Shown one piece after another: positions 1 to 57,645 of a stretch of 64,000 nucleotides of DNA. The position numbers were made by a program, and so were the translations under genes. Position 1 is the stretch's first letter. Each line of letters starts with the position of its first letter. This stretch comes from Thermoplasmatota archaeon (GTDB lineage: Archaea > Thermoplasmatota > Poseidoniia > Poseidoniales > Thalassarchaeaceae). The stretch is from contig JAYZLP010000020.1 in the NCBI GenBank assembly GCA_036154155.1, forward strand, positions 13,849 to 77,848, in the 5' to 3' direction. The notes under the pieces are model-generated. The model saw only the letters and a program-made list of their open reading frames with translations, was not told the DNA's origin and searched no databases.

Positions 1-1
1 G

Positions 2-238: not shown

Positions 239-358
239 GGGTCCCAACATTGAATATCCTGTTTCCCAAGTGGTGGTCAGGGGAGCTTAGTGCTGAGAGG
301 TCGCCGCGAGGCGACGACCCTTTTACCTGATCTGGGTAATGCCAGCGGAGGGAGAGAA

Positions 359-1822: not shown

Positions 1823-1946
1823 GCGGGCCCTGCGCTTTGTTCATGAACGCCCCCCTCTTCGCGAATCCGTGGACACAAGGAAACCCCTCTCAGTACTACT
1901 CCCTTGGAATGATGTCTGGAGGCCGTTGTGGTCCCGCAGGGAGGGC

Positions 1947-4780: not shown

Positions 4781-4901
4781 GGCCCCTTGCGATAAATGAC
4801 AGGTATATTGATTTACAAATATATTTTCTATATAGTTATCTTAATATCGTTACACTAGAAGGCTACTATAACTATTTATTTAGACTCCACCTCGGAAGTA
4901 C
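4781..4901. promoter_or_regulatory. AT-rich divergent promoter region between pit (-) and the AbrB-PhoU regulator (+)
   Basis: 121-nt stretch of very low GC (tttacaaatatattttctatatagttatcttaatatcg) in an otherwise GC-rich window, with several TATA-like boxes on both strands. Confidence 0.4.
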
Positions 4902-6691: not shown

Positions 6692-6699
6692 TCTCGCAC

Positions 6700-8148: not shown

Positions 8149-8245
8149 GAATGCCCGAATCGGGCCGGACTTTTGATTCCGGCGGGAGAAGGCGCCCTTG
8201 GTGCGTCATCATGCTTATCGTGAGGATTCAGCCCGCATGCACCCG

Positions 8246-8321
8246 GGGCTCGTGGTCTAGGGGTTATGACGTCGCCTTCACATGGCGAAGATCGCAGGTT
8301 CAATTCCTGCCGAGCCCACCA
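8246..8321 (+). tRNA. tRNA-Val (anticodon CAC), CCA encoded
   Basis: Cloverleaf: acceptor gggctcg/cgagccc, anticodon stem tcgcc/ggcga with loop ttCACat, T-arm gcagg-ttcaatt-cctgc. Confidence 0.85.
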
Positions 8322-9023
8322 TCAGCCCAGAATGTCGTCAAGCAGAGATGATGCCCCTATCCTGAGCCTGCTTCTCCCATGGATTCCTGCCTCATTAGAA
8401 TCCACGATTCCGACCAATCTCTCGACGTCTTCCATGGTCCTGATCCCCCCTGAAAGCTTGACGCCCCTCTCCTCGCCCATCGTAACCGAATGGCGCTTCA
8501 CCTCGAAGGAGAGTAATCGGGCGTCCTCATCGCTGCAAGCCCCCCTCATGCCTGTGCAGCTTTTCACGAAGTCGGCCCCAGACGCCAGTACCATGCGAGT
8601 CACTGCTCTGATGTCGTGCTCCCCAAGTAGAGGAGTCTCTATGATTACCTTGAGGGCCCGTCCGGCCGATGCATCCCTCATCGCCTTGAGTAAGGCCAGG
8701 TCCCGCTCGCCCGGAAAGTCGTCCGAGTCACGCGGCTCTAGGACGCAATCGATCTCGTCCGCCCCATGTCTAACCGCCGTTTCAACCGATTCCCGAATCG
8801 AAGAGGCATCGTTCCAGCCCACGGGGAATCCACCAGCCACTGCAGCCACCGAGATCCCTTCATCTAGCAGGCCCCTGACCAATTCAACGTGCTCAGAGAA
8901 TACGCACACGGCTGCAGGCCTGTGTTCGTTCGCCCTCTCGCACAGCATTTCCAAATCTGCATACGAGGCCTCGTGGTCCAGCAATGTGAGGTCCAGTATG
9001 TCGAGAACGCCTCTAGCGTCCAT
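8322..9023 (-). CDS. deoC: Deoxyribose-phosphate aldolase
   Basis: DeoC-type TIM barrel with FVKSCTG and KLSGGIRT Schiff-base lysine motifs; start trimmed to MDARGVLD. Confidence 0.8.
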   Translation of the reverse strand: MDARGVLDILDLTLLDHEASYADLEMLCERANEHRPAAVCVFSEHVELVRGLLDEGISVAAVAGGFPVGWNDASSIRESVETAVRHGADEIDCVLEPRDSDDFPGERDLALLKAMRDASAGRALKVIIETPLLGEHDIRAVTRMVLASGADFVKSCTGMRGACSDEDARLLSFEVKRHSVTMGEERGVKLSGGIRTMEDVERLVGIVDSNEAGIHGRSRLRIGASSLLDDILG

Positions 9024-9031
9024 GAAACCAC

Positions 9032-10123
9032 TCACCCGTGCCTTGCCTCGAATCGTCTCATGAACGAAACCAGGGCTTCCACGCTTTCTATCGGGCATCC
9101 GTTGTACATGCTCGCCCTGATGCCTCCGACGCTCCGGTGCCCCTTCAGCCCACCTAGCCCCGATGCGGCGGCCTCCTCAAGGAATGCCGGCTCCAGATCA
9201 TGGTTTGCTAGCCTCCATGTGACGTTCATCACAGATCTTGAATCAGTATTGGCGTGAGGGACCCAGAATGGCGTCCTATCCAGCTCCTCGTAGAGAAGTG
9301 ACGCCTTCTTTCTGTTCCTCTCAATGGCCCCCTCTAGGCCCCCGTTTCTCTCGACCCATGCCATGACCCTGTCAAGGACGAAAATTCCGAATGTGTTCGG
9401 GGTGTTGAACATGGATCCCTTGGAAACGTGGGTCCTGTAGTCCAACATCGTGGGAACCCCCTCTCCAATCTTGGAAACTGCCCAGGGAGATAGGATGACT
9501 AGGGTTACCCCGCTGGGCCCCAGGTTCTTCTGCGCCCCGGCATAGACGAGGTCATGGGATGATACGTCCAAGGGGGTACCGCAGATGTCCGAGCTTGCAT
9601 CTACCACCCGTGGCTTTCCTCCGCTGTCCGGAATGTGGTGGAACTGAGTTCCAAAGAGAGTATTATTTGACGTGTAGTGCATGTAGCTCGCTTCGTCCCT
9701 AATGGTATAATCGCCATTGCTAGGGACAGAAACGAATCCGTCATCGGACCCGTCCCAAGCCGCCTCAGCATCGCCAACCCTACCTGCCTCCTTGATGGCC
9801 TTCTGAGACCAACCGCCCGTGATTAGGAAGTCCGCCTTCCCTTCATTTCCAAGCAAATTAAGGGCAGTCATGTAGAATTGTGTGGAAGCACCTCCCTGCA
9901 GGAATAGGACATGGTAATCATCAGGAACAGAGAGAACCCTTCTGACCCTCTCTTCCGCGGAGTCGATTACGTTCTGGAAGGTCCCACTTCTGTGAGAAAC
10001 CTCCAGTAGCCCAAAACCGCTGCCCGATAGGTTCGGAAGAGCCTCGGCTACTTCGGATACCACCTCGAGGGGCAGTACAGCTGGCCCCGCGCCGAAATTG
10101 TGCACCCGGCCCGCCCCGGTCAT
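9032..10123 (-). CDS. serC: Phosphoserine aminotransferase (class V aminotransferase)
   Basis: NFGAGPAVLP N-terminus; overall SerC/SerC-like architecture. Confidence 0.8.
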   Translation of the reverse strand: MTGAGRVHNFGAGPAVLPLEVVSEVAEALPNLSGSGFGLLEVSHRSGTFQNVIDSAEERVRRVLSVPDDYHVLFLQGGASTQFYMTALNLLGNEGKADFLITGGWSQKAIKEAGRVGDAEAAWDGSDDGFVSVPSNGDYTIRDEASYMHYTSNNTLFGTQFHHIPDSGGKPRVVDASSDICGTPLDVSSHDLVYAGAQKNLGPSGVTLVILSPWAVSKIGEGVPTMLDYRTHVSKGSMFNTPNTFGIFVLDRVMAWVERNGGLEGAIERNRKKASLLYEELDRTPFWVPHANTDSRSVMNVTWRLANHDLEPAFLEEAAASGLGGLKGHRSVGGIRASMYNGCPIESVEALVSFMRRFEARHG

Positions 10124-24566: not shown

Positions 24567-25790
24567 CTACTTCCTACCCCTTCTTCTACGCCTAGAGTCC
24601 CTCTTTGAGAACTCCTTCTCTTCCTCAGAGCCAATCTTCATGGTGACCCAGTGACTAAGCTCCGGGGACATGGACATCAATATACTGAGTACCACTCCAA
24701 AGATAACTAGGGGAAAAACAATCATGATGACTAGCCCCATCAATCCATCTACCCATGAATCCTCCGATGGCGGATGAAAGCTCAAGATCGTCCCCCTGTC
24801 GGTAAGAATCCAGCCGCTGTCCCTGTCAGTCGCCCACGTTGCAACCACCCTTTCTCCTGAGACAGTTGAGTCAAATTCAACCACATCAGAGTTCTCTAGC
24901 CAGGGGAAGGAAGCATTCAGTCCTGCATCGTGCTCAACTAGAGAGAATGGAGTTAACAGGATCATTGACCTATCTCCATGTTGACTTTCGATGCCCGTGA
25001 ACACCCCCCCCACTCCCGAAATCTCGCTAATGCTGACTTTGGAGGAGGAAGGATTAGCTGCATCCAGATCAACCATCCCTATCGCATCTCCAGAGGTAAA
25101 CACGCAAACGTCAGTTGTAATCGGGCACACCATTCCATTCCAGGGGTATATTCCGCCTCCTACCCAGTGTACAGCGTGATCCCTGTCGATAATTGCAATC
25201 CCGTCATAAGTCGTCCCAACCACGCAAAGTAGAATTTCTCCGTGGCATTCTATCTCTGTAATCTCACTCCCTGTCCCAAGCCCCTCAAGGACATGAACCT
25301 CTGCACCCCCATCACTGGAGGCTCGCATCCTCCAGATTGTTCCGTCGTCCGATCCCACGTAAGCCCAAGAACCACCTTGGTTCCAAGCGACGGCAGTAAG
25401 TGAGGAGTCATCGAATTCTTCATGCCCCCCCGCATCAGTTACAGAGTGGTCATCTGCGGCGTACCTGAGAACTACTCCATCCTCACCAACGATTAGTGCA
25501 GTAAGCCCACCTGGGTGGTAGTCAGCGTCGTTGAGCGCAGACTCCCCGGTCACGGGCATAGGTACCTGAATCGATGGGTCCGCGGCATTGATCATTTTCA
25601 TTATCGACTCTTCGCCATAAGCAAGTACCCAACTACCAGCAGGATCCAGAGTCGCGCCATTCAGTCCTAGGTCAGTTGAAGATAGGCTGTCCATCTCATC
25701 CAGCACTACTGCGGACTCTGCGTGCACTGATGCGGTGGAAAATAAGGTAGCAGAAAGCAATGCCAATATCAAGAACGCCGCTCGTGCCAC
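24567..25790 (-). CDS. Secreted beta-propeller-like surface protein with C-terminal TM anchor and poly-Arg tail
   Basis: Signal peptide MARAAFLILALLSATLFSTASVHA; C-terminal hydrophobic helix followed by RRRRRGRK. Confidence 0.5.
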   Translation of the reverse strand: MARAAFLILALLSATLFSTASVHAESAVVLDEMDSLSSTDLGLNGATLDPAGSWVLAYGEESIMKMINAADPSIQVPMPVTGESALNDADYHPGGLTALIVGEDGVVLRYAADDHSVTDAGGHEEFDDSSLTAVAWNQGGSWAYVGSDDGTIWRMRASSDGGAEVHVLEGLGTGSEITEIECHGEILLCVVGTTYDGIAIIDRDHAVHWVGGGIYPWNGMVCPITTDVCVFTSGDAIGMVDLDAANPSSSKVSISEISGVGGVFTGIESQHGDRSMILLTPFSLVEHDAGLNASFPWLENSDVVEFDSTVSGERVVATWATDRDSGWILTDRGTILSFHPPSEDSWVDGLMGLVIMIVFPLVIFGVVLSILMSMSPELSHWVTMKIGSEEEKEFSKRDSRRRRRGRK

Positions 25791-42239: not shown

Positions 42240-42647
42240 GTGGCAATTGGCGGGTCGGATCATAGGAGGATTAACGTGGTTATCTCCGCTTGGCTTTGTA
42301 TCGCTATAGGGAGCGCAGTCATTCTTTATTCGAGCTCATCACCATTCGCTCTAGCATTGGCAGCACCCATTTCTATTGCAGGTGTTGTACTGCTTGTAGT
42401 TGGATTGGGAATGAAGGATGAAGGAACAGCGGACCATGAGGTCATCGAAAATTGGGAACCAGAGCCCGATATTCTACCAGATGCAGGAGGGCCGATGTAT
42501 AGGATTGACACCACTTTGGTTGAGCCAATCAGGACCTCGATACTTTGCGGTAGGTGTGGAAATGTGCATTGGCTGGAAGGCGGTAGGCCACATTTTTTTG
42601 AATGCCCTGTTTGTGAGGTAGAATTGTGGAGGGACGAGGAAGAGTAA
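42240..42647 (+). CDS. Hypothetical membrane protein with C-terminal zinc ribbon
   Basis: Two N-terminal TM helices, then CGRCGNVHW..CPVCEVE. Confidence 0.45.
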   Translation: MAIGGSDHRRINVVISAWLCIAIGSAVILYSSSSPFALALAAPISIAGVVLLVVGLGMKDEGTADHEVIENWEPEPDILPDAGGPMYRIDTTLVEPIRTSILCGRCGNVHWLEGGRPHFFECPVCEVELWRDEEE

Positions 42648-42707: not shown

Positions 42708-44201
42708 TTGGAAATGAGTAACAATGAGCGTACATTGCTCAAATTCATGTTATCCGAACCATCCAGAACTTGGACCTTGGACGAACTCCTTTCAGGTGCT
42801 GGCTGGGATGACCAGGTCCATGTCGCAGGCTCGGGAATGGCTCTTTCCGAGTTAGGCCTAGTAACCGTAAATGAAGAAATCGAGGCCTTTGTTTCCCTGG
42901 GCGAAGAGGGTGTGAACGCCCATCGCGAGGGCCTCCTGGAGTTCAGAATTTGGAACTGCCTCTCTTCTCTGCCTGAATCAGAGAGGACGATGGATAGGCT
43001 ATTCGAGGAGGGGTTTGAGCGCCACGAAGCAGGTCCCGGCATAGGCCTACTGAAATCCATGGGGCTTTCAATCGATTCTGGAAGGCTGGTCGTCGAGGAC
43101 GAGATATCAATTTCTAAGCAGATTTCTGTAAGATCAGAATTCATCTCTTCTTTGTCAGAAGGCCCCGTTGCCAAGTTAAAACTAGATGACGAAATGGTTA
43201 GCCATTTCCTGGGGAGGAAGGGATTAATTCTGATCAATGAGGAAACCTCCAGATCTTGGTCACTAACCGATGCCGGCTCATCGATTGAACAATCAGAACT
43301 TGAGCATGTTGAGATGATCGGTGAGGTAACGCCAGAGTTGCTCCAATCAGAAAACTGGAGGGGTGCGAAGTTCAAGCCCTTTGATGTAAATTCACCAGCA
43401 CCAATTCCCATGGGCGGGCGCCCCCATCCCATGCAGGCGTTGATAGAGAGGATAAGACAGGTCTTCTTGGAGATGGGGTTCTCGGAGATAGAGGGGGACT
43501 TTGTGCAGTCTGCAGGATGGAATATGGACGCTCTTTACATCCCGCAATCTCATCCAGCAAGGACCATGCAAGACACCTTCTACCTGTCTGAGCCCAGTCA
43601 AATCGATGTCGATGAACACTATCTCGATCTTTGGTCCAAGGTTCATGAGCACGGACACGACACAGGAAGTAAAGGCTGGGGCGGCTCCTTTGACAAGGAT
43701 GAGTCACGCAAATCATTACTGAGGACTCATACGACTGTAAACACTGTGAGGCACATCGCGGAGAATCCCGATGAACCCTCAAGGGTTTTTGGCATTGGAA
43801 GGGTTTTCCGTCAGGAGACGATCGATCGAACCCACCTTCCTGAATTCCACCAGATTGAGGGGATAATCCACGAGGAAGAAGCTAGCCTTCCGATGCTTAT
43901 CACAACTCTGAAGACGTTCTACTCCAAGATGGGCTACCCAGATGTCCGAGTACGACCCGCCTATTTCCCATACACGGAGCCTAGTGTGGAGGTGGACATC
44001 CTTTGGAGGGGCCAATGGCTTGAGCTAGGGGGGGCTGGAATATTCCGCCCAGAGGTCACGGAGCCGCTAGGCTCCAAGTGGCCCGTGTGTGCATGGGGGA
44101 TGGGGCTAGAGAGACTGGCAATGATTATACTAGACCTGGACGATATACGGCAGTTGTACCAACCAGATCTTGAGAGGTTGAGTCGGATGCCCATACTCTG
44201 A
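42708..44201 (+). CDS. pheS: Phenylalanyl-tRNA synthetase alpha subunit (archaeal/eukaryotic type)
   Basis: Class II core motifs FRPAYFPYTEPSVEVDI, GAGIFRPEV, AWGMGLERLAMI. Confidence 0.85.
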   Translation: MEMSNNERTLLKFMLSEPSRTWTLDELLSGAGWDDQVHVAGSGMALSELGLVTVNEEIEAFVSLGEEGVNAHREGLLEFRIWNCLSSLPESERTMDRLFEEGFERHEAGPGIGLLKSMGLSIDSGRLVVEDEISISKQISVRSEFISSLSEGPVAKLKLDDEMVSHFLGRKGLILINEETSRSWSLTDAGSSIEQSELEHVEMIGEVTPELLQSENWRGAKFKPFDVNSPAPIPMGGRPHPMQALIERIRQVFLEMGFSEIEGDFVQSAGWNMDALYIPQSHPARTMQDTFYLSEPSQIDVDEHYLDLWSKVHEHGHDTGSKGWGGSFDKDESRKSLLRTHTTVNTVRHIAENPDEPSRVFGIGRVFRQETIDRTHLPEFHQIEGIIHEEEASLPMLITTLKTFYSKMGYPDVRVRPAYFPYTEPSVEVDILWRGQWLELGGAGIFRPEVTEPLGSKWPVCAWGMGLERLAMIILDLDDIRQLYQPDLERLSRMPIL

Positions 44202-46146
44202 CCACGATTACTGCCATAATCAGGAATGACAGGATCTCTCCACCATTAGGCGGGATAATTTCAGAGAAGTCCGCTATTGAATTCGATACTTCGGACGCCT
44301 GACCCGGAGGCCCTCCTCCGCAACCATCGGGCGGAGGTCCAATCCCGGGGCCCCATGTTTCGCCGTGTCCAGAGCAGTCAGCGCCACCTCCTTCCCCATT
44401 CTCAGAGTAAACCTCCCCTCTGTAGCAGTTTATGAAATAGGGAAAACCAATCCCTCCTTCTCCATTCTCCCAGGTTGTGTGATAGTGGTAGATTCCATCT
44501 GGATAGTCCGGCGTTGGACCGTATTGGCCGTTACAAGAATCCAAGTCTCCGATCCCAGGAGAATATTCGTAGTCATCTATTCCGTTATACCCGGTCTCGC
44601 CTTCCTTGAGCCTGTATGAGGATTTCATTTCAGTTAACTCTCCTTCATCATCCCATCCAACGAAACCATAGATTGGGTATCCATCTAAGGCGAAGCCCAC
44701 TATTGGAGAGTGACTTGTGATTGACCTCGTTGACTCCAAGCTGTAATCAGCCCAGGTTTCTCCACTTTCTTCATCGGGGTGCCAGTGCAAACAGTTCGCA
44801 TCGGCGTGGTAGTGAAACTCCCCGCCTGGGCCTGAGTGGGCATGACAGATCCCTAGCCACACATGCTGCCTATCTTCCTCGTAGGCCCCCTCCTGTCCAG
44901 CTACTGCATCCCCACCGGGCCCATCCTCAGGCCCAAAAATAGGCACCCCATTCGCAGCGAAAGCAACTGCTCCCCTTTCCGGTGCCATGGTGCAACCATC
45001 GGTGGAGATAGATGGATCACACCCAGTCTGATTAGTGGGCTCGAGTGGTATCGTCCATACATGTTCCTGTGCGCTTGTGCAGCAGCCGGGTCCAGACTCA
45101 AGGTCGTGATTTGGAAGGCCATTGGCGGAAATTTGTATATGGGTCTCGTTGGTGGTAAAGCTGAGTTGGCAAACGTGATTGTCAAATTCACTAGTGTTGT
45201 AGTCGTCTATTCCTTCAACCTGTTCTGTGGAGTCACACAATAGCACATCTTCCCACCATTCCTCTGTTCCAGCCTCGATCTCCTCCGATTGTTCATCGTA
45301 CTCGCACGAACCGTCATCCTCCTCAGCGCCAGAGTCGTAGTTGTTGGCCTCTGGGTCTGTGCAACCAGTGACTGGCGCTGGCTCGTCGTACTCGCACGAA
45401 CCGTCATCCTCCTCAGCGCCAGAGTCGTAGTTGTTGGCCTCTGGGTCAGTACACCCTTGAGTTGGTTCTGCTTCAGTTTCCAGAACAGTAATGGTGACAA
45501 TTTTCTGACTTGATGTTTCAGTCCATATGCCACACGTAGCCTCTAGTGAGACCGTGGTGTTTTCCTGTAGGTTGGAAAGCTCCAGAATGTAGCCCCCATC
45601 TTCGTCTATTGGCAGCCCTAGGCTGGACTCTTCGATATCGGTGGTGCTCCACCTCAATTCACATGTCGAAGCGTCATCGTGGATTACAAGTCCGGAGATC
45701 GGAGCATCCCCTCCACGTTCAACATGGAACTCGCCCTGAGAAGTCGTAAGCTCCGTTTCACTCTCTTCAGGATAGTGAATAATGAAAGCTTTGGACCACG
45801 ACGTCTCTTGCCCCAGACTGTCTATTGCCACAACCTTCAGTGCATGGCTACCCACATCTAGTTCAGAGATGTCAATTGAGATCACGCCATACTGATCGGG
45901 TAAATCAGCGATTTCATCTCCGTCTAGTGTGACCAATAGTGAGAGGTCTGACATCTTCTCGTCGCTTATGGTGATTCTAACCGTGTCAACCGTGCCTATC
46001 AGTATCGTATCGGGAAGATCGGAGTCAACAGTGGGCGCGCGATTAAGTCCCTCGTCTTCAACGCCGAAGAAAAGGATGCCCGCCATCACACTGGTAATCA
46101 TGAGCCCAGCCAGCATCAATGACCTCGCGGCCCCTCCATCTTCCAT
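44125..46146 (-). CDS. Secreted YHYH-domain protein with Ig-like N-terminal region, tandem Cys-containing 30-aa repeats and C-terminal hydrophobic anchor
   Basis: Signal anchor. Repeats TQGCTDPEANNYDSGAEEDDGSCEYDE x2. C-terminal GEFHYHADANCLHWHP ... YHYHTTWENG motifs. The 3' end overlaps the pheS 3' end by 77 nt. Confidence 0.6.
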   Translation of the reverse strand: MEDGGAARSLMLAGLMITSVMAGILFFGVEDEGLNRAPTVDSDLPDTILIGTVDTVRITISDEKMSDLSLLVTLDGDEIADLPDQYGVISIDISELDVGSHALKVVAIDSLGQETSWSKAFIIHYPEESETELTTSQGEFHVERGGDAPISGLVIHDDASTCELRWSTTDIEESSLGLPIDEDGGYILELSNLQENTTVSLEATCGIWTETSSQKIVTITVLETEAEPTQGCTDPEANNYDSGAEEDDGSCEYDEPAPVTGCTDPEANNYDSGAEEDDGSCEYDEQSEEIEAGTEEWWEDVLLCDSTEQVEGIDDYNTSEFDNHVCQLSFTTNETHIQISANGLPNHDLESGPGCCTSAQEHVWTIPLEPTNQTGCDPSISTDGCTMAPERGAVAFAANGVPIFGPEDGPGGDAVAGQEGAYEEDRQHVWLGICHAHSGPGGEFHYHADANCLHWHPDEESGETWADYSLESTRSITSHSPIVGFALDGYPIYGFVGWDDEGELTEMKSSYRLKEGETGYNGIDDYEYSPGIGDLDSCNGQYGPTPDYPDGIYHYHTTWENGEGGIGFPYFINCYRGEVYSENGEGGGADCSGHGETWGPGIGPPPDGCGGGPPGQASEVSNSIADFSEIIPPNGGEILSFLIMAVIVVRVWASDSTSQDLVGTTAVYRPGLV
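45296..45447. repeat. Perfect 62-nt identity within a 90-bp tandem direct repeat (2 copies) inside the YHYH gene
   Basis: tcgtactcgcacgaaccgtcatcctcctcagcgccagagtcgtagttgttggcctctgggtc occurs at 45296-45357 and again at 45386-45447. Confidence 0.85.
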
Positions 46147-46221
46147 GATTCAATGTGAGGGCAAGGGCATATAATCAATTAAGTGAAAATGCACGAAAAA
46201 TATGCAATGCAATGAAAAACT

Positions 46222-47289
46222 TCACTCCTCAGAAAGAGAGACAATGTCCAGAAGGAACTCCGAGGGGTCCCAGTTGATGCCAGAATAAGCTACTCTTTTC
46301 CTCATCTGCTTGTCAATAATGAAAGTGGTCGTTGAGTGCCCTACCTCATACTGGCCAAGTGATTCGCCATGGGGGTCCGTGGAGCCCTCTGCCGAACTAT
46401 CCCCCGAGCCCTCTATTACGCAGGACAGCCAATCTCCATCCGGTCGTTCGTAGCCTTCGTCACACATGCAGTGGGCATTGGAACCTGAGCCCATAATCCA
46501 ACCGTGGTTATTGCAATCAGAGCCCGGGGGCATCACACTCAGGTTCGCATTGCTGGCCACCCATGCCAAATGGGTATCAGATGTCATTTCAATCGAATCA
46601 AGTCCACCGGGGTATTCCACCCAGGTTTCGTTAGTTATGTCCCAGGAATGAAGGTCCCAATCCCAGGTTTCGTTAGACTCCCAGCCTCCAATTTCCCCGC
46701 TCGAGAAGTTGTAACTAGTATTTGCTTCCACTAATGCCCCCTCGATATATTCGGTACCGTTCATTCCCGATCCCGTAGTGTCTTGCACCAAGGTTGAATT
46801 GTCAGGGAAAAGCACAACCAATCTGTTGAGGCTGTCTTCCGGGGGCTCACTGGCTGCTATGTGCTCGTTGTCCACAATCACATTCCACGATCTGTAAATT
46901 CCCTGAAGTTCAGAAACCGGGCCAGTCAAGTGAGGCCAGCCATATCCCCTCTCCTCGGTCCATTCGGATAAGTGATCGATTGTGTCCCTCGCCGGGTCGA
47001 TGGTTACCGAGACAATCACCACTTCATCGGAATGCCCCCCAAGATTCTCATTGACGTAGTCTAGATTAGACGAAATCACCAAACAAACATCGGGGCAATA
47101 AGTGTAAACAAAGGCTACCACAATCACCTTTCCCTGGTTATCGGAGAGTCTGAACACGTCCCCGTTCTGATCGAATAGGGCGAAATCAGGAGCATCTGGA
47201 GGGTCCTTGTATTCAATCCCAAGAATCTCAATTGACTCGTTTGAGTCTCCTAAGCACCCTGGGGCTAGGATGGACAATGTGATTAGCAA
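46222..47289 (-). CDS. senC: SCO1/SenC-family copper chaperone (thioredoxin fold) with large Cys/His-rich insertion, lipoprotein-like signal
   Basis: FVYTYCPDVCLV (CxxxC), HLTGP. The fold closes with FIIDKQMRKRVAY..; insertion CNNHGWIMGSGSNAHCMCDEGY. Confidence 0.7.
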   Translation of the reverse strand: MLITLSILAPGCLGDSNESIEILGIEYKDPPDAPDFALFDQNGDVFRLSDNQGKVIVVAFVYTYCPDVCLVISSNLDYVNENLGGHSDEVVIVSVTIDPARDTIDHLSEWTEERGYGWPHLTGPVSELQGIYRSWNVIVDNEHIAASEPPEDSLNRLVVLFPDNSTLVQDTTGSGMNGTEYIEGALVEANTSYNFSSGEIGGWESNETWDWDLHSWDITNETWVEYPGGLDSIEMTSDTHLAWVASNANLSVMPPGSDCNNHGWIMGSGSNAHCMCDEGYERPDGDWLSCVIEGSGDSSAEGSTDPHGESLGQYEVGHSTTTFIIDKQMRKRVAYSGINWDPSEFLLDIVSLSEE

Positions 47290-47318
47290 GACCTTTATTT
47301 TCGAAATAAGATAACCTC

Positions 47319-48068
47319 CTACTCATCAATTAGTAGCATAACGTCCTCTAATGCCAACTCAACATTCCAGTCCATGTCTCCCCACCAGACCCTCTGGTTC
47401 ATCTGCTTGTCCACAATGATGGTACCAGTCGTGTGGTCCACCCAATATTCATGGCTCCCGACGTGCTTAACCGAAACATCCCCATCATCCCCTTGCTGGG
47501 TCTCTAGTCCACATCCGTGGTCATCTACTTGCTCTCCTTCGGGTGTTTCGACACAAGTGTCAAATCCATCTGCAACACCATCTCCATCTGTATCGGTGTC
47601 GTACGCAGTAAGGCCCACATCAAACTCCAACCAAACCTCCTCTAGATCGCTCAAATTACCCGTTAGGTGTGGCCACTCAAGGCCCCTTTGCTCCGAGTAA
47701 TCTGCCAATATTGTGTGGTTGTCTGTCCATGGGTCGACGGTAATACTGAGAATCTCAACAGTTTCTCCGTATTCCTCACCCAGCAGCATCTGCAAGTAGT
47801 CAAGATTAGCACTGACTATCGGGCAAATGTCAGGGCATCGAGTGAAAAGGAATGCAATCACAACGACCTTGCCCTCGTACTGCGAGAATGAGAAGTACTC
47901 CCCATTCTGATCGATTAGGAGAAAGTCTGAAACTGGAACCGGCGGGTTGATGTCCTCCCCATAGAAAACATCAGAGTCTTCGTTCCCGAGGCATCCTGGG
48001 AGGGCGATCATTAGTACGGCACAATACGCCCAAAACCTACTCATCTGACTCCCCCTTCTTGCGTGCAA
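47319..48068 (-). CDS. senC: SCO1/SenC-family copper chaperone paralog with Asp-rich (DTDTDGDGVADGFD) insertion
   Basis: FLFTRCPDICPIV (CxxxC), HLTGN, IIVDKQMNQRVWW. Confidence 0.7.
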   Translation of the reverse strand: MHARRGSQMSRFWAYCAVLMIALPGCLGNEDSDVFYGEDINPPVPVSDFLLIDQNGEYFSFSQYEGKVVVIAFLFTRCPDICPIVSANLDYLQMLLGEEYGETVEILSITVDPWTDNHTILADYSEQRGLEWPHLTGNLSDLEEVWLEFDVGLTAYDTDTDGDGVADGFDTCVETPEGEQVDDHGCGLETQQGDDGDVSVKHVGSHEYWVDHTTGTIIVDKQMNQRVWWGDMDWNVELALEDVMLLIDE

Positions 48069-48561
48069 TAATTACTATTGCTAGTCCCAAGAGAATCAGT
48101 GATAGAGGGGAGAAATCAGAATCATTGCCGGCCGCTGCATCGTCTTGGTCATTGTTGAATGAGTAGCTCCCTGGGGCCACATTTTCAGTGTGGTTGTCTA
48201 GTAATATACTCAGGCTAAGTGTTTTCCAAATAGTGCCATTCGAGAAAATCTGAATTTCATAGTCTCCGGATGTCCAATTTATCGGGTCCAGCCAAACTCT
48301 GCACTCGTCATCCGTGCTTGTAGAAGATGGCCCTGCCGTGCAATCAATCTCGTATACTCCATCCGCCCCTATGTCCAACGTTATGACTCTCTCGAAGTCA
48401 ACCACATTGTAGAAAATCAATGTGTCATTCTGCAGTACCTGTGCTGATTCTGGCTGCAAACTCTCTCCTCTCATGACGAAGGCGAATGTGTTGGCCCCAT
48501 GAGCGGACACGGTTGGAGCGATCAACATCACAATCGCCAATGAGACAAGTATCCTTCTCAT
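48037..48561 (-). CDS. Small secreted protein, predicted mature N-terminal His, C-terminal TM anchor (putative CopC-like metal-binding protein)
   Basis: Signal MRRILVSLAIVMLIAPTVSA then HGANTF...; beta-rich; C-terminal LSLILLGLAIVIIARKKGESDE. Confidence 0.5.
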   Translation of the reverse strand: MRRILVSLAIVMLIAPTVSAHGANTFAFVMRGESLQPESAQVLQNDTLIFYNVVDFERVITLDIGADGVYEIDCTAGPSSTSTDDECRVWLDPINWTSGDYEIQIFSNGTIWKTLSLSILLDNHTENVAPGSYSFNNDQDDAAAGNDSDFSPLSLILLGLAIVIIARKKGESDE

Positions 48562-50519
48562 TCGTCACTAGCCTCCGCTGACCAAAGCGGAGGGTAGTTG
48601 TATCGAGGGTCAAAATCCTCATCGAACTGCACAACATAGATGCCGCTCACCATCTCTGAAATGAATACAAATCCCCTCGGATCATACTGCAGACCCCAGT
48701 CGAATGGAATCATGCATGAAGCCCAACAATCCGCCATATCGTATCCTAGTGTGTTAGTTGGGTCTTCAATCCACGTAGGTCCGGCTGGAAGGTAGTAACC
48801 AAGGGTGTGCGTTGGAGCTAGCTCCTCAATGCATTTGAACCCGCATTCGGGATTTGGGGACCCGCCAGTCCACACTATCTCTTCCCAAATTTTCCCGTGG
48901 TCAGTCAACCAGTTTCCAGCATGGTAGTGAGTCCAATAGACGTGTCCATTGACTCCTGTATCGCCATTGTGCGGGCTGAAAATGTATCCTCCGGGGATAT
49001 AGTGCTGCGGGTGTTTGGAGCCGTTGGCCAAGGTCCCCTCCCCCGGCAGTCTCCATTTGGATACGAGGAATGGCATTGTGGGGTCAGTAGTATCGATTGT
49101 CCACAGGAATCCCGTATGGCCCGGGTTGCTGCCATATTCGGGAGCAATAATGGTGTAGTGGCGCCAGTTCCCCCCGTAAGTCGCGTCTTCCGGTCCAGTG
49201 CCACATTCCGATGGCCACTTGGACTGGGGCACGTACTCACTAATTCCATTGCAGACCAAGTGGTCGTATGGAACTGCGTAGTGTATGTTGTCGTTGCCCT
49301 GCTCAGCATCTAGCCATTCTTCGGGAGTCATATTGGCATGACCTCCTCCGTCGGGGCCATACCATCCTGAGTCATCAGTAGGGCACCCCAGCCATCTGCC
49401 AACTTCTGGCGGCCAGGAGACTCCAAGTGGATCAGCTACCGAGGGAGGCTCACTGACGTCCACTATTCGAAGACCAGCTCCCCAATAAGAGGCCACAAGC
49501 AGCCGTTGCTTTGTGATAGGGTGAACGAAGTAAACGTGATCGTGATTGAATATCGACCCGCCGCAAGTGGTGTAAGGCTCGGGCGTGTATCCGCCCCACC
49601 TGAGTATTTCCCTGCTGGAATTATCGCCAGTGATCCAAGAGTCGAAACCATTAGGCACGTAGAATACCTGAGTCCCTTTGTAGAATGTTCCGCTACTGCC
49701 TTCAACCATTTCCGGATATGGGTCTGCGCCGAAAAGGAACAGGCTGCATTCTTCATAGGGGTCAAAGGCACCATCCCAGTCGCAATAAACCGCTAGGTCT
49801 TGATTGTGGAATCCGGCTGGCGGGTTGTTCCACTCAGCTACCTTCACAGGACGAGTTTTGTCTCTTACATCAATAACATCGAGCCTGTTAGTTCCACTGT
49901 TTGCATCATCGTCATTAGGTATCGGGTCCAGTTCGCTGTTCGTCAACTCATGGTTCACAAGGACCCAGTTGTTGTCCTTTGTTACCTTTATGTCAATCAT
50001 TCTGGCAACTTCTGCGTAATAGGTGGATAGCAAAATTATGTTATTGGGCTCACTGATATCGAGAATCTCGAATTGGTTGTAGCTAGAAACGTACGCATAG
50101 CAGCCACCAGTTCCATCGCCGTATATCTCGCAGTCCTCATGGAAGTTGCCTTCGATAGCTATCTCTGAGTTGTCCCCCGGTGTCGGTCCGACATTCTTGA
50201 ATTCCTCATCACAAGGCCTACCGGCAGTATCGTCAAGTTCCGCCGGCGGCTTAACATTGCCATCGCAATTCAGATTGTGGTAGTCGATAAGAACCGCATT
50301 CTCAGTCCATAGCCGGTGGGAGAATAAATCATTGTGAGAGTGATTTCCGTCCTCAATCTCCGTCACCGGATCTATCCAGCCAGAGTCCCCTCCTTCATTT
50401 CCACCTGAATCATCCAATATCGACAAGCATCCAGACAGTGGAGCTAGAACCATCAATCCGACCATTACCAAGCACGGACTAACCCGCATGCCCCGACGCG
50501 CGCGACCAACGCCTATCAA
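48558..50519 (-). CDS. LVIVD-repeat beta-propeller lipoprotein
   Basis: Lipobox LAPLSGC; repeats LVASYWGAGLRIVDVSEPPS etc. Confidence 0.65.
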   Translation of the reverse strand: MIGVGRARRGMRVSPCLVMVGLMVLAPLSGCLSILDDSGGNEGGDSGWIDPVTEIEDGNHSHNDLFSHRLWTENAVLIDYHNLNCDGNVKPPAELDDTAGRPCDEEFKNVGPTPGDNSEIAIEGNFHEDCEIYGDGTGGCYAYVSSYNQFEILDISEPNNIILLSTYYAEVARMIDIKVTKDNNWVLVNHELTNSELDPIPNDDDANSGTNRLDVIDVRDKTRPVKVAEWNNPPAGFHNQDLAVYCDWDGAFDPYEECSLFLFGADPYPEMVEGSSGTFYKGTQVFYVPNGFDSWITGDNSSREILRWGGYTPEPYTTCGGSIFNHDHVYFVHPITKQRLLVASYWGAGLRIVDVSEPPSVADPLGVSWPPEVGRWLGCPTDDSGWYGPDGGGHANMTPEEWLDAEQGNDNIHYAVPYDHLVCNGISEYVPQSKWPSECGTGPEDATYGGNWRHYTIIAPEYGSNPGHTGFLWTIDTTDPTMPFLVSKWRLPGEGTLANGSKHPQHYIPGGYIFSPHNGDTGVNGHVYWTHYHAGNWLTDHGKIWEEIVWTGGSPNPECGFKCIEELAPTHTLGYYLPAGPTWIEDPTNTLGYDMADCWASCMIPFDWGLQYDPRGFVFISEMVSGIYVVQFDEDFDPRYNYPPLWSAEASDE

Positions 50520-50554
50520 ATTCCCCTTTTGTGGGGCGCGGCCCTAAAGGGCCG

Positions 50555-52300
50555 TCAGAACGTCGAAACTGGCCCATAGGGCTTGTCAATGTCCAATTGA
50601 ACGATGTATAGGCCACTAGTGATACAGGACAGGTATGTGTAACCTTCATGATATTCGGCAGCCCATAGGAAAGGAGTCCAACCGAAGTCATAGAACGCAC
50701 TATCCAAGGGAGTCCCATCAGCACCATGAGGCAGGTGGAAGCCAACCGTGGAGTCCATGTGAACGGCCGTTTTGTTCTCGTCTGAGAGTCCAGCAACCAT
50801 GAGTGTCTCGATATCTACTATCCATAGTCCAGCGTGGTAGCTAGACAAGTATATCCTGCCGTCCCAAGCACCACCGTGGCTATTGTCTGGAAGTCCTGGT
50901 AGACCAGTCTGGAAAATCTGAGTATCTGCGTTATGGGGGCTGAAAAGTAACCACTCTTCCCCGTCCGGTATGTGGTGGTCCCAAGCAAAGGGAATTTCCC
51001 ACCCATGGATCAATTCGGGTTTGAATCTGAGATTTCCATTTACCATTTCATATCCGGTTGTATCTAGAAGGTAGCCCATCCCAGTTCCTACGGTGGTGCT
51101 CAATACTTCTGTGGCGATAATGGTGAGGTGACGCTTACCGACCGGGTATCCAAGGTGACTAGCATCCACCATGTCATCAATCGGCTCTGCGTAGTGGATG
51201 TAAGATGCCCTCCCTCCGTTTTCATTGCTGGTACATCCGCAGTCTATCTCTCCATCACCATCGAAGTCTTCGAACTCCATCCACTGCCCAACCTCTGGTG
51301 CCCTCCAAAGGCAACCAGCCTGGGAACCTCCAGAAGCTCTACACAATGAGCCGTGCCAGAGGTATTCTGCAAGATCCTTTCCTGGATGGGGCACATCCGA
51401 AACGTCGAAGATCCTGAGTCCCGCTTCCCAATAAGCTCCGTAGACATAGGTCCTGGCAAAACGTGGATCATTCGAGTCCTCGCCTGGCCACGTTTGCACC
51501 GTCATATCGTGGATGTAGATCCATCCCCCAAGAGTAGACTCCCACGAAACTTCAGCCTCTCCAAGCTTCACAATCCTAGGCAGATCTCCATAAGCAGCGA
51601 AATTCAGATGTGCAATTGTAATGCCGCCGCATGCATCGCCCTGCCCTACATCGCATGATTCGTAGTCCGGATTAGCGACAAAGATGTACCATTCGTTGTC
51701 GATCATGTGAGTGTAAAGGTTGTGTGGGCCACTCGGGTGGTCAAAGTCGTACCATGAATCCACCCAGCTCGGATTAGACTTGTCCGTGACATCCACTAGT
51801 GTCACTGTGACCTGAGCTGGGTCCTCCCAAGATCCAACATTGGGATCTGCTGCCCCGGGGTCAACAAGCTGATTCTGCACGATTACATATTCCCTAGCAT
51901 TGTATTCCAGATATTTGACATCCAAGACCTGTGTGTTCGGGTCGTAGTAAACCCCAGTAACTGTTGTATTGTATGGATCAGTCACATCGACGATATGCAT
52001 TTCTGACCATCCTGCAATGTATGCATATGTTTTCCCATCAGGGGAGTCTGCAACTTGGACCTCGGCATTACCCGGGGCTGTAAGTGGATTGTAGCTAACT
52101 GGCAATATATTATCCGTGTAAAGAATATGCTGACTAGCGTTTCTATGATCATGCCCCTCTTCCTGGATCAGTGGGTCCTCCATTCCTTCGACAATCGTAG
52201 CACTATCTTCGGTTTCCTCTATCAGCATAATCGACGCCACAACTGCCGCCAAAACACAACCTGCAAAGGCCAGTGCCAGAACTATCCTCCCGGACTCCAC
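50555..52300 (-). CDS. LVIVD-repeat beta-propeller protein (paralog)
   Basis: Signal anchor; IAGWSEMHIVDVTDP, GAYWEAGLRIFDVSDVPHP, SYHAGLWIVDIETL. Confidence 0.65.
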   Translation of the reverse strand: MESGRIVLALAFAGCVLAAVVASIMLIEETEDSATIVEGMEDPLIQEEGHDHRNASQHILYTDNILPVSYNPLTAPGNAEVQVADSPDGKTYAYIAGWSEMHIVDVTDPYNTTVTGVYYDPNTQVLDVKYLEYNAREYVIVQNQLVDPGAADPNVGSWEDPAQVTVTLVDVTDKSNPSWVDSWYDFDHPSGPHNLYTHMIDNEWYIFVANPDYESCDVGQGDACGGITIAHLNFAAYGDLPRIVKLGEAEVSWESTLGGWIYIHDMTVQTWPGEDSNDPRFARTYVYGAYWEAGLRIFDVSDVPHPGKDLAEYLWHGSLCRASGGSQAGCLWRAPEVGQWMEFEDFDGDGEIDCGCTSNENGGRASYIHYAEPIDDMVDASHLGYPVGKRHLTIIATEVLSTTVGTGMGYLLDTTGYEMVNGNLRFKPELIHGWEIPFAWDHHIPDGEEWLLFSPHNADTQIFQTGLPGLPDNSHGGAWDGRIYLSSYHAGLWIVDIETLMVAGLSDENKTAVHMDSTVGFHLPHGADGTPLDSAFYDFGWTPFLWAAEYHEGYTYLSCITSGLYIVQLDIDKPYGPVSTF

Positions 52301-52354
52301 GACTCACGGGACACTGGCGGTCATGTTGAAGCCATCGCACCCCTACGGAGGGTC

Positions 52355-52945
52355 ATGAGGGCATCCGAGGTAGTGTTAGCTTCCCTCATCGTAATACTGC
52401 TGGCAACTCCTGTTACAGCTCACGAGCCGAAGGAATATACAATGCTGTTGAAGGAAGAGGGAGTGACTCCAAGTGGGGTTCAATATGGCATACTGGTTGC
52501 TACCGACTACTTGTTCTTCTACAATGTAGATAGCAGGGAAAACACTTCCCACAGGATTCTGATTGACGCCGATTCCGATGGGATTTTCAATGGTGCGGAT
52601 GATATTTCCACAGCGTGGCTTTATCCTTCCTGCGAGTTAAACGAGACCGGCCAAAGGATCGACCCAGATTGCCAGGTCACTGAATTGGTTCTCTTGGACC
52701 CCTCCAACGGGCTAATCCCCGGCAATATCTCAATGATGCACCAGATATTGCACAACGGAACAACGCATGACTCAGTTTTCGTGGTTTCATTCTCTAATGA
52801 CGACCATTCCACACAACCCGTCTCAAACGACGAATCGGAGCAGGAAATTGAGAATGACTCCTCTAGTCAGATTCTGAAGTCAGTCCTTCTACTATCTCTG
52901 GTAGGGATGGCCGTATTGTTGCCTAAGCTACTATCCGATGGCTAG
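52355..52945 (+). CDS. Small secreted protein, predicted mature N-terminal His, C-terminal TM anchor
   Basis: MRASEVVLASLIVILLATPVTA then HEPKEY...; C-terminal ILKSVLLLSLVGMAVLLPKLLSDG. Start trimmed because the upstream part of the ORF overlaps the LVIVD gene. Confidence 0.5.
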   Translation: MRASEVVLASLIVILLATPVTAHEPKEYTMLLKEEGVTPSGVQYGILVATDYLFFYNVDSRENTSHRILIDADSDGIFNGADDISTAWLYPSCELNETGQRIDPDCQVTELVLLDPSNGLIPGNISMMHQILHNGTTHDSVFVVSFSNDDHSTQPVSNDESEQEIENDSSSQILKSVLLLSLVGMAVLLPKLLSDG

Positions 52946-53003: not shown

Positions 53004-53080
53004 GGGCGCTTAGCTCAGCTTGGAAGAGCGCCTGGTTTGCAACCAGGCGGCCGGGGGTTCAAATCCCCCAGCGTCCACCA
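53004..53080 (+). tRNA. tRNA-Ala (anticodon TGC), CCA encoded
   Basis: gggcgct-ta-gctc-agcttggaa-gagc-g-cctgg-ttTGCaa-ccagg-cggcc-ggggg-ttcaaat-ccccc-agcgtcc-a-cca, G3:U70 pair present. Confidence 0.85.
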
Positions 53081-55488: not shown

Positions 55489-57645
55489 ATGTCTCCCGTC
55501 TTGGCCCGAGGCATTCGCGTGAGCGCTGGATTAGAAGCGGTGGCCATAAAGAACCTCCAGACCCTATTTGTTTCAAGGGGGGTCTCAGCAGAGTCTCTAT
55601 TTTCGAAATACGATATTGATGGCGATGGGTCATTGAGCCTAGATGAGTTCTCGGCGGCCCTAACTTCCATCACTGGGCAGTCAGCACCCCAAGCAATTGT
55701 GAGGGCAATTGTGAGCGCCCTTGACTCAGATGGTGACGGTTCCCTGAGCCTCTCAGAAGTAATCTCTCTAGTCGAGTCAAACACGGATGAGGAATACTCA
55801 GAGGGTTCCGGAATCACCGTCAGCGATCACCCCAACCCCCTATACAATGGTGAGTATATTCCGCAGCATGAAGTCAATGGGAAGCCTTCGTTCAGGAATT
55901 CTGAAGGAGCCGTTCTTTACTATTACAACGCCGGCTCCGGGGGTGCTCCCTCATGGAGCCTAGATGACAGGGACCAGGATGGTAGCAATGACTGGTACAG
56001 AGGTGGCTGGACACGCGTCCCGAGCTCCGGTGGATTACCCCTCGGTCATAGGAGGTGGGTAGGTGTCGGAAAGATCACCATCAGCTCCATCTCAGACCCA
56101 AGTGAACCAGGGCCAAGTGCGTCGGAGGAAAGTGCGTCAGAACCAATTTCACCGCAAGATCAGGCAGTAAGCAACACGGAGATTATTCTCTCGAAGGCGA
56201 CCTTTTCAAGCTTGGAAGAAATCACCTTCCACTTCAGGGTCCCTCAGTTACCTGGAGACGCATGGATCGGGATTATTCCCTCTGGAATCCCCCATGGGGA
56301 TGAGGCGGTCAATGATATGCACGATACCAGTTTCGTGCATCTCCATGGGGAGACGACGGGCGAGGTTAGCCTTCCCAACCCGGGGCCTGGCGAATGGACG
56401 CTGAGGTTGCATGATACGGATAACAACGGTAACGAGATGGCATATGTTGCATTCACCGTTAGTGGCATCGAAACCGATCCCCGCCCTTCCATCACCGTCG
56501 TCGGTGGCGACAGTGTGCCTATCGATGGCCCGCTAGAGATTTCCTTCACGGGAGCAGATGAAAATACTGCCTGGGTGGGAATTTATGGAGAGGGGGGCGC
56601 ACATGAGAATCACAATGGTTGGTGGAAGTATCTTAATGGCGAGCAAACACCACCCAGTGCTCCGATATCCGAAGGCAACATTACTTTCCAACCATCCGAA
56701 AGAAGATCGGAAAACATTGGCATGTACCAAGCGAGACTGTTCGCGAACAACGGCTACGAAATGATCGCCCAATCCCGGTTCGAGTTCGTAGAGGAGATCA
56801 CACTGGACAGCGTCACCGGCCAGTTCTCCGACATCCTCGCTTCGATTGATCCCCAGTCAAGCAGCATCGAGGCGATAGAGGCGGGGAGAGTCCTGGCGGA
56901 CGCTAGAATAGAGCGGAAGATATCCAGACTCCCCTTTTCACTGCAATCACCGGCAAGAAGAATCTGGGATGCAAGAGCGGATGCCTACCAAGCAACGATG
57001 GTCGCAAACCTCCCTCCTCCCGAGACAGTAGCAGCTGGAGTTGCCGCGGCAGGAATAGCGGCCGCGGCCCTTTCGTCCGCCACAAGGGAGACAGCTCCTT
57101 CCCATGGGGGCGATACCGATGACGATGCAGTAGTCTCAGATGATTTGCCTGGTGAGCAGGAAGAAACCATTGCCCCCACTGAAGCAGAACGTATCCAAGC
57201 CGCAGCGCTTGAGCAAGCCCGCGCCCAAGTCGCCGCAACAACCCCCTCTGCAACTTCGCCACCTGAAGCAACATCGGAACCTGCTACAGGGGCCACCGAT
57301 CAAGACCCATTCTCTGAAGTGGTTAGGTCATTCTCTGAGGCGAGATTATTGTCCGATCAGAAACGCCTCGTTGAAACTCATGGGGGCGCTTGGTTCGAGG
57401 TTTCACTCAAAGTGCTGTCCGTGGAGAAGACCTTCGGGATTGGGCTTCCGGAGGGATACAGGGGAGGTAGCACGTTGATTGCTGAAGTTTCCCCCGTTGG
57501 AAACCCCTCATTCTCCTGCGAGTCCGAGATCAGGCTCCCATCTTCTGCTGATTCGGGCACCTACAAAGCAGGACATGAGGGAGTCATGAGGGTCTCCGTA
57601 CAGGGATGGAACTCCATTCGAAAGAGAGTCATATTGGCCTCTTAG
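55489..57645 (+). CDS. Large hypothetical protein with two N-terminal EF-hand-like Ca-binding loops and two internal beta-rich repeat modules
   Basis: DIDGDGSLSLDEF and DSDGDGSLSLSEV; repeats DAWIGIIPSG..WTLRLHD..AYVAFTV and TAWVGIYGEG..YQARLF..SRFEFV; hydrophobic segment near residue 500. Confidence 0.5.
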   Translation: MSPVLARGIRVSAGLEAVAIKNLQTLFVSRGVSAESLFSKYDIDGDGSLSLDEFSAALTSITGQSAPQAIVRAIVSALDSDGDGSLSLSEVISLVESNTDEEYSEGSGITVSDHPNPLYNGEYIPQHEVNGKPSFRNSEGAVLYYYNAGSGGAPSWSLDDRDQDGSNDWYRGGWTRVPSSGGLPLGHRRWVGVGKITISSISDPSEPGPSASEESASEPISPQDQAVSNTEIILSKATFSSLEEITFHFRVPQLPGDAWIGIIPSGIPHGDEAVNDMHDTSFVHLHGETTGEVSLPNPGPGEWTLRLHDTDNNGNEMAYVAFTVSGIETDPRPSITVVGGDSVPIDGPLEISFTGADENTAWVGIYGEGGAHENHNGWWKYLNGEQTPPSAPISEGNITFQPSERRSENIGMYQARLFANNGYEMIAQSRFEFVEEITLDSVTGQFSDILASIDPQSSSIEAIEAGRVLADARIERKISRLPFSLQSPARRIWDARADAYQATMVANLPPPETVAAGVAAAGIAAAALSSATRETAPSHGGDTDDDAVVSDDLPGEQEETIAPTEAERIQAAALEQARAQVAATTPSATSPPEATSEPATGATDQDPFSEVVRSFSEARLLSDQKRLVETHGGAWFEVSLKVLSVEKTFGIGLPEGYRGGSTLIAEVSPVGNPSFSCESEIRLPSSADSGTYKAGHEGVMRVSVQGWNSIRKRVILAS

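Follow-up and report, generated by a model that had tools for sequence, protein, structure and literature searches.

The principle of an exported metalloprotein attended by dedicated copper chaperones is known, and several described systems come close to the locus reported here. Two of them place a copper enzyme of the propeller type beside a chaperone: in the mtoX-SCO1-mauG cluster, the enzyme is SBP56, a methanethiol oxidase (PMC5739008), while thiocyanate dehydrogenase, a 7-bladed copper propeller enzyme, has copC/copD and a thioredoxin-like gene alongside (PMC6504805). PmoD follows a plan of signal peptide, cupredoxin domain with two invariant Cys and C-terminal helix, and its genes share operons with those for copper chaperones and a copper enzyme (PMC6189053); as for FtrB, its binding of Cu2+ reportedly needs the C-terminal D118, and H121 is also predicted to take part (PMC11966278). 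The locus in question occupies positions 44125-52945 of a 64,000-nucleotide stretch (the window) of contig JAYZLP010000020.1, from an archaeon of the Thermoplasmatota (order Poseidoniales, family Thalassarchaeaceae), and it consists of seven genes, g1 to g7, whose components and combination are not described.

In our tentative reading, the block encodes an extracytoplasmic, copper-dependent system of Poseidoniales and related Thermoplasmata, with two propeller-cupredoxin pairs at its centre and Sco chaperones that service them. Judging from the sequences, a copper theme is plausible for the block because the Sco ligand triads are intact, one of the small proteins models as a cupredoxin fold, the predicted N-terminal His is accompanied by Asp and His, the propellers are rich in His, and the two copper propeller enzymes above, with their Sco or CopC genes alongside, offer a precedent; the pairs, and not a generic chaperone kit for an oxidase, are placed at the centre because of the constraint on these genes and their pairing. 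A first-pass annotation of the same stretch could not match the gene combination to any described system, and neither could we: in the literature searched, including that on Marine Group II (MGII, the Poseidoniales), no description of this cluster and no function for YHYH or LVIVD proteins was found.

Layout and conservation of the block

The seven adjacent open reading frames (ORFs) are all present, their Pfam domain calls (YHYH, SCO1-SenC twice, LVIVD twice, and two small paralogues without a call) hold, and the features are as follows, with lengths in nucleotides (nt) or amino acids (aa):

g1, 44125-46146, minus strand: 673 aa, YHYH-domain protein with an anchor at each end
g2, 46222-47289, minus strand: 355 aa, Sco1/SenC lipoprotein, lipobox APGC
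g3, 47319-48068, minus strand: 249 aa, Sco1/SenC lipoprotein, lipobox LPGC
g4, 48037-48561, minus strand: 174 aa, predicted N-terminal-His protein with a modelled cupredoxin fold
g5, 48558-50519, minus strand: 653 aa, LVIVD propeller (modelled), lipoprotein, lipobox LSGC at residue 31
g6, 50555-52300, minus strand: 581 aa, LVIVD-type 7-bladed beta-propeller (modelled) with an N-terminal signal-anchor helix
g6/g7 spacer, 52301-52354: 54 nt, divergent, GC-rich
g7, 52355-52945, plus strand: 196 aa, predicted N-terminal-His protein of cupredoxin type, divergent from g6
tRNA-Ala, 53004-53080: after g7, at the end of the block

The first-pass annotation had taken the seven genes as co-directional; six are, from g6 to g1 on the minus strand, and g7 is transcribed away from them, while the tRNA gene that it placed at the block end is indeed there. 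The spacing of g1-g6 is operon-like: the g5 stop and the g4 start overlap by 4 nt, g4 and g3 share 32 nt if the ORF coordinates are taken, or 8 nt with the g3 start chosen by gene callers, and the remaining gaps inside the block are of 29-75 nt. The true start of g3 is likely at 48044, which gives a 241-aa product; for g5, gene callers place the start at 50489. At the other end, g1 and the convergent pheS share 77 nt at their 3' ends (44125-44201), and a comparable g1/pheS overlap occurs in the related loci L001, L003 and L005. No TATA-like element was recognised in the g6/g7 spacer, whose 54 nt were read by eye; Tandem Repeats Finder reported no repeats within the block, and Rfam returned two tRNAs and nothing else.

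Every one of the seven products carries an N-terminal hydrophobic signal, a signal anchor or a lipobox, in agreement with the claim that all are exported or anchored, and g1, g4 and g7 have in addition a C-terminal transmembrane segment. Six of the genes form three paralogous pairs, namely g4/g7 (27% identity, E 2e-10), g5/g6 (24%, E 1e-30) and g2/g3 (42%, E 1e-34).

Regarding its conservation, the cluster is part of the core synteny and not an insertion, contrary to the view that it interrupts otherwise core loci. Searches by tblastn of the seven proteins against 87 loci recovered the order g7 (divergent), g6-g5-g4-g3-g2(-g1), pheS in ~80 species-level Poseidoniales genomes, essentially all of those with a long enough contig; the co-occurrence of the genes across Poseidoniales, which the first-pass annotation had put forward as a check, was thus found. 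An island inserted at the tRNA was considered and rejected, because the block, at 0.50-0.52, has the same GC content as its flanks, and its synteny with pheS is conserved. Homologues of g4, g7 and g6 are restricted to Poseidoniales/Thalassarchaeaceae and related Thermoplasmata, and over the g6 match the window is 99% identical to the metagenome-assembled genome UBA438.

The genes of the block differ in how strongly they are constrained. Over 55 complete loci, the median identity to the window is 79% for g6 and 77% for g5, followed by PheS with 71%, g3 with 64%, g2 with 55%, and g4 and g7 with 49%; the propellers exceed PheS in all 55 loci. The LVIVD proteins, which had been treated as passengers, are therefore the most conserved genes of the block. 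About 12 loci lack the YHYH gene g1, and in others it is split or differs in size; the protein is a dispensable, optional accessory.

In more distant lineages the genes persist as pairs. A g7-type gene stands divergent beside a g6-type propeller gene (62-65% identity) in L088, L089 and L091, and L096 has the same arrangement of a g7-type small protein beside a 592-aa ORF; in L092, a small protein is divergent beside a propeller of the g5 type (75% identity) and no Sco gene is close by, and L094 has the order g7-type (divergent), g6-type, M28 peptidase, g5-type, g4-type, Sco. Four of these distant propellers were aligned (L088, L089, L091 and L092), and each retains all ten of the invariant His discussed below. 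Because the divergent pair recurs in distant lineages, even without a nearby Sco gene, the conserved unit is a propeller plus a predicted N-terminal-His cupredoxin, in two paralogous pairs, to which Sco and YHYH proteins are added in some lineages.

Some differences at the edges and within these loci were also recorded. On the g7 side, L001 (1-2562) and L003 (1551-5448) have Peripla_BP_2/FecCD/ABC transporter genes together with PNPOx/DUF2470 (HugZ-like) genes, which suggest uptake of haem, iron or cobalamin; where these two loci have uptake genes, the window carries tRNA-Ala and TFB. The M28-family metallopeptidase gene of L094, between its two propeller genes, is at 6414-7961 of that locus.

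The propellers and the small N-terminal-His proteins

The products of g5 and g6 score 32.8 and 26.3 bits with Pfam LVIVD (PF08309), where the cut-off is 20.2, and both were modelled as 7-bladed beta-propellers. Across 155 g5 and g6 sequences, in which the paralogues are only ~24-31% identical, 10 of the 24 His of g6 are conserved at 97% or more, these being H50, H52, H58, H193, H264, H369, H391, H442, H456 and H489; the same ten are invariant in g5. In the propellers, His equals Pro, Trp and Gly in how frequently it is conserved (odds ratio 3.4, p = 0.006), and in the same 155 sequences there is no conserved Cys or Met. Three of the His form the motif H50-x-H52-x5-H58, which precedes the propeller; in each of blades 1-7, the second strand starts at or directly after one invariant polar residue, these being N78, D127, H193, H264, H369, H456 and D538, in that order. 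As far as can be told from the secondary structure of the model, one polar residue per blade is the pattern that would be expected of a metal or active site in the central channel. Single-sequence searches of the PDB with g1 and g5 gave no meaningful matches.

The constraint on the propellers bears on one alternative, that these are ordinary surface, adhesion or S-layer-associated proteins without a shared metal chemistry, with the small proteins as stalks and the clustering due to co-export. The LVIVD repeat was defined from surface proteins of archaea and bacteria and is usually taken as an attachment module (PMC2447325; Tenderiales preprint); the fold matches are with generic protein-interaction propellers, and g1 contains Ig-like and repeat modules. 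However, the strong constraint on g5 and g6 is unlike that of fast-evolving surface adhesins, and the reading is weakened by a rate of evolution that is slower in the propellers than in PheS; the ten invariant His and the single polar residue in every blade are likewise unexpected for adhesins, and a metal-free setting would hardly account for two intact Sco triads together with the invariant His predicted at the mature N-terminus. We regard this alternative as improbable.

As for the small proteins, g4 has a signal peptide ending in ..TVSA↓H21 (the arrow marks the predicted cleavage), invariant C74 and C87, an invariant D122-x-H124 motif, a disordered acidic linker and a transmembrane segment at 150-166. 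In g7, the signal peptide ends in ..PVTA↓H23 and is followed by an invariant Cys pair, H66, H129, D149-x-H151, an acidic linker and, at the C-terminus, a transmembrane segment. The codons for the putative ligands of g4 are the following:

H21 of g4, 48499-48501, minus strand
D122 of g4, 48196-48198, minus strand
H124 of g4, 48190-48192, minus strand

The first-pass annotation had read the junctions VSA↓HGAN and VTA↓HEPK as leaving His at position 1, and both exist. His is the predicted first residue of mature g4 and g7, because the cleavage sites fit the -3/-1 rule and A-x-A↓H is near-universally conserved: the His directly follows an A-x-A-type site in nearly all full-length relatives, down to E about 1e-5. 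Among 120 homologues of g4, residues P16, A20, H21, G22, A23, C74, C87, D122 and H124 are conserved at 99-100%; when the two paralogue families are taken together, P37, D46, N52, C74, C87, P93, N108, D122 and H124 remain invariant, with A20 and H21 above 90%. In a few divergent members (P0259, P0261, P0268, P0303, P0312, P0332 and P0358) Asp replaces the post-cleavage His, and three of these seven also miss the D-x-H motif; they may have a variant or degenerate metal site.

Neither g4 nor g7 matched a Pfam or NCBIfam family, the family profile gave zero matches in the PDB at E up to 10, and a profile search of 1.84 billion representatives retrieved 162 relatives; by these measures the two constitute a new, narrow family without relatives in Pfam, NCBIfam or the PDB. 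The model of g4 is an eight-stranded Greek-key beta-sandwich with the cupredoxin fold, whose best structural matches are Brucella FtrB (8vuk) and E. coli EfeO (7wgu), at 10-12% identity. The first-pass annotation had proposed a comparison of the 48037..48561 product with CopC-like and related folds: the cupredoxin fold came out as anticipated, but the nearest structures are FtrB and EfeO and not the Ig-like folds of CopC or of the lytic polysaccharide monooxygenases (LPMOs). That annotation had also named the findings that would speak against it, namely cleavage elsewhere, models with neither a His-brace-like nor a cupredoxin-like site, and no co-occurrence of the genes, and none of these was encountered.

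A role for g4 as a type-1 blue-copper or CuA protein was examined and rejected, as the ligand loop is absent: the turn between strands 7 and 8 is just S-N-G, and an Arg occupies the strand-4 position of the type-1 ligand set. In g7, His66 and His129 are retained, and the strand 7-8 loop has no Cys. These two His (codons 52550-52552 and 52739-52741) are invariant in g7-type and absent from g4-type proteins; a hand alignment to the g4 model, read against general cupredoxin topology, puts them at about the canonical "northern" ligand positions of cupredoxins, close to the Cys pair, where they may form a second metal site.

Three groups of described proteins are closest to g4 and g7. With the His-brace proteins (CopC, the N-terminal domain of PmoB, LPMOs and X325/Bim1), they share an N-terminal His, predicted in our case, a beta-sandwich, and a further invariant His and Asp; with X325 they also share an anchor in the membrane, at the C-terminus and behind a flexible linker. 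The predicted N-terminal His of g4 and g7, together with the Asp and His, is reminiscent of the coordination in CopC and X325. However, no sequence relation with the His-brace families was found in Pfam, NCBIfam or the PDB, and CopC and LPMO folds are Ig-like, whereas that of g4 is nearer to true cupredoxins. PmoD/AmoD resembles g4 in having a signal peptide, a cupredoxin domain with two invariant Cys and, at the C-terminus, a transmembrane helix, but the Cx7MxHxnC motif is absent from g4, which has no Met or His between its Cys, and there are no pmo/amo neighbours. The third group, the Cup-II proteins FtrB and EfeO, has D118/H121 of FtrB at a position similar to that of D122-x-H124 in g4; unlike g4, FtrB is soluble and without the N-terminal His motif, and the Ftr/Efe permease, P19 and the peroxidase of these systems are absent here.

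The structural neighbours of g4 introduce a second alternative, in which the metal is not copper: the block would perform an EfeO/FtrB-like step of iron acquisition or ferroxidation, or the propellers would be Zn/Fe hydrolases or oxidases, with Sco acting only as a thiol-disulfide oxidoreductase whose targets are the Cys-rich proteins among those exported. FtrB and EfeO are indeed components of iron uptake, FecCD/Peripla_BP_2/ABC and PNPOx/DUF2470 genes flank the g7 side in L001 and L003, a metallopeptidase separates the two propellers of L094, and g1, g2 and g5 are rich in Cys (18, 7 and 16, respectively). Nevertheless, neither an Ftr1/EfeU permease nor P19 or EfeB is encoded in the window, L001, L003 or L005, the neighbours related to iron uptake vary between loci, since the window has a tRNA and TFB in their place, and the literature presents FtrB itself as a Cu2+ protein; moreover, both Sco paralogues retain the Cys, Cys, His triad over 60-70 orthologues. 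There is, in our estimate, little chance that this alternative applies.

The Sco proteins, the YHYH protein and a possible role in copper delivery

Both g2 and g3 match Pfam SCO1/SenC (PF02630), with 87.9 bits (E 7e-25) and 86.9 bits (E 1.5e-24), respectively, against a cut-off of 22.8, and Sco proteins of the PDB align with them at E 4e-11 to 2e-5. The copper-ligand residues of the family correspond to C65xxxC69 and H318 in g2 and to C78xxxC82 and H212 in g3, with the His aligned to the "LVDHT" of Thermus Sco; they are conserved at 95% or more in 60-69 orthologues, and the claim that both proteins keep CxxxC is thus extended to the ligand His. Like Thermus Sco (2k6v) and B. subtilis YpmQ (1xzo), g2 and g3 have CxxxC, a ligand His in D/G-H-[ST] and an extracellular membrane tether; they differ in carrying large conserved insertions and in adjoining propeller genes and not cox.

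In g3, the insertion ahead of the His loop is of ~40 aa and consists of a thrombospondin-type-3-like (TSP3) Asp-rich repeat; in g2 it is of ~170 aa, with a conserved epidermal growth factor (EGF)-like motif, DC..GW.MG...HCMCD.GYeR......C. Because of these insertions g2 and g3 are best described, from their sequences, as variant Sco members: neither has the compact form of the family, a thioredoxin fold of ~170 aa with ~85-90 residues from CxxxC to His. The first-pass annotation had singled out a CNNHGW..HCMC insertion in one Sco protein; the stretch is there, in g2, and "aHCMCD.GyeR" is kept in 60 orthologues, but the His of "NNH" is not, and "HCMC" reads as part of an EGF-like C-x-C-x2-G-Y motif.

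The YHYH match of g1 (PF14240, E 2e-33) covers residues 364-577, and both [FY]HYH motifs are present, in EFHYHAD and IYHYHTT, which bears out the His/Tyr pairs reported earlier. The rest of the protein includes an Ig-like N-terminal region, a Gly/Pro-rich linker and a duplicated Cys-containing motif of ~25 aa, GCTDPEANNYDSGAEEDDGSCEYDE, with copies 30 aa apart. In the DNA, the duplication is seen at 45286-45456 as two direct 81-nt copies, spaced 90 nt and 91% identical, which Tandem Repeats Finder missed. The orthologue alignment of g1 was uninformative, as the gene varies in size, or is split, from one genome to another.

The Sco pair invites the model of the first-pass annotation, a module for the capture and delivery of copper whose clients, encoded elsewhere, would be the CuA centre of a heme-copper oxidase and halocyanin/plastocyanin-type carriers. 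The N-terminal-His proteins would scavenge seawater Cu(II) like CopC or Bim1/X325, Sco would load the clients, and the propellers and the YHYH protein would be scaffolds or receptors for organically complexed copper. CuA assembly is the canonical Sco role, and the combination of an N-terminal His, Asp/His and a C-terminal anchor presumably parallels the GPI-anchored X325/Bim1 proteins. The block has no substrate-related or electron-transfer gene and every protein in it is surface-tethered, as this model would have it. Copper demand may also be high, given that halocyanin is among the most highly transcribed genes of Thalassarchaeaceae (PMC9723583).

On the other hand, no oxidase or blue-copper gene is linked to the block, whether in the window or in the related loci whose flanks were inspected, and a regular-expression search for CuA and related motifs in the ORFs of at least 100 aa found no CuA motif or oxidase gene in the window. 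The strongest constraint, furthermore, is on the propellers, which carry the ring of His, and not on the chaperones, and the propeller-cupredoxin pair of L092 persists without a nearby Sco gene. Of the earlier proposal, then, the copper theme is reasonable, but nothing specific backs a module that acquires and delivers copper for the maturation of a heme-copper oxidase or of cupredoxins, and we consider this model less likely than the reading that follows, though its most serious competitor.

A possible copper-dependent surface system

In the reading that we tentatively favour, a system centred on the two propeller-cupredoxin pairs, the gene content, modelled folds, conserved residues, synteny and pairing are observations, whereas we infer the identity of the metal, the geometry of its site, the transfer partners and any catalytic activity. 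Each propeller, with one invariant His, Asp or Asn per blade and the N-terminal HxHx5H, would hold a putative His-ligated metal or active centre at its central channel. In the small protein, H1 and D-x-H would form a putative His-brace-like type-2 copper site of the His1/Asp/His kind known from CopC or X325. Tethered to the membrane, this protein would take up Cu at the cell surface and dock onto its cognate propeller (g7 with g6, and g4 with g5), for which it could serve as copper donor, redox partner or membrane tether. With their CxxxC and His, the Sco lipoproteins g2 and g3 would insert copper into the pair or serve it as thiol reductases. Much as Sco does with the cupredoxin domain of CoxB, they would possibly act on the two invariant Cys in the corresponding domain of the small protein; the YHYH protein would be an optional accessory.

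A bolder version of the same reading makes g5 and g6 a new class of extracytoplasmic, His-ligated and possibly multinuclear copper enzyme, each with an anchored cupredoxin subunit of the His-brace type, that performs an unrecognised oxidation at the cell surface of MGII, which rank among the most abundant archaea of the surface ocean. Like the copper propeller enzymes SBP56, thiocyanate dehydrogenase and NosZ, g5 and g6 have 7 blades in the models, conserved His that are presumed ligands, and an adjacent gene for a Sco or N-terminal-His chaperone. However, no sequence similarity or specific structural similarity with these enzymes was detected, and MauG, cytochrome and CopD are absent here. 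As it stands, we think this version unlikely.

Several points weigh against a copper-dependent system of the kind outlined. The fold search with g6 returned generic propellers only (WD40, LGI1 EPTP), and NosZ, thiocyanate dehydrogenase and SBP56 were not in its best 50-60 matches; the family profile of the propellers had zero matches in the PDB at E up to 10. The AlphaFold2 models were built on shallow alignments (32 and 68 sequences), and the predicted local distance difference test (pLDDT) score is ~60 around H50-H58 of g6 and only ~68 near H124 of g4. The block encodes no substrate, electron-acceptor or membrane-transporter gene. Finally, His-rich sites also bind Zn, Fe or Ni, or catalyse metal-free reactions, and Sco proteins can be pure thiol-disulfide oxidoreductases.

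Other observations concern the window outside the block. Its first 10 kb (1-10000) have a GC content mostly of 0.57-0.61 (0.49 at 4-6 kb) versus about 0.49-0.53 for most of the rest, and could be a compositionally distinct segment. Between tRNA-Thr and pheS, at 42240-42647, there is a 135-aa membrane/zinc-ribbon ORF (CxxC...CxxC), which is conserved as a gene of 115-135 aa in L001, L003, L004 and L005 and whose Pfam match, to a Cas12f1-like TNB zinc ribbon, is below threshold (E 2e-4; 21.7 versus 26.3 bits). Just outside the cluster, 55489-57645 encodes a 718-aa protein that has two EF-hands at its N-terminus (E about 3e-10) and a long stretch of low complexity. The 407-aa secreted protein at 24567-25790, with a signal peptide ending in ..SVHA↓E and a weak WD40 match (E 2e-4), may be another exported propeller.

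In conclusion, Poseidoniales are globally abundant and uncultured, and their physiology is inferred from genomes. The cluster occurs in essentially every MGIIb genome examined, and it is composed of families of no known function, namely LVIVD, YHYH and the predicted new N-terminal-His cupredoxins. The proteins are small and soluble without their anchors, so that the hypothesis is directly testable by expression, metal analysis and electron paramagnetic resonance (EPR). If copper-dependent, the system would be a major copper sink or enzyme for an organism living at picomolar free copper; it would also place a His-brace-like site in a new fold context and provide the first functional handle on the LVIVD family.

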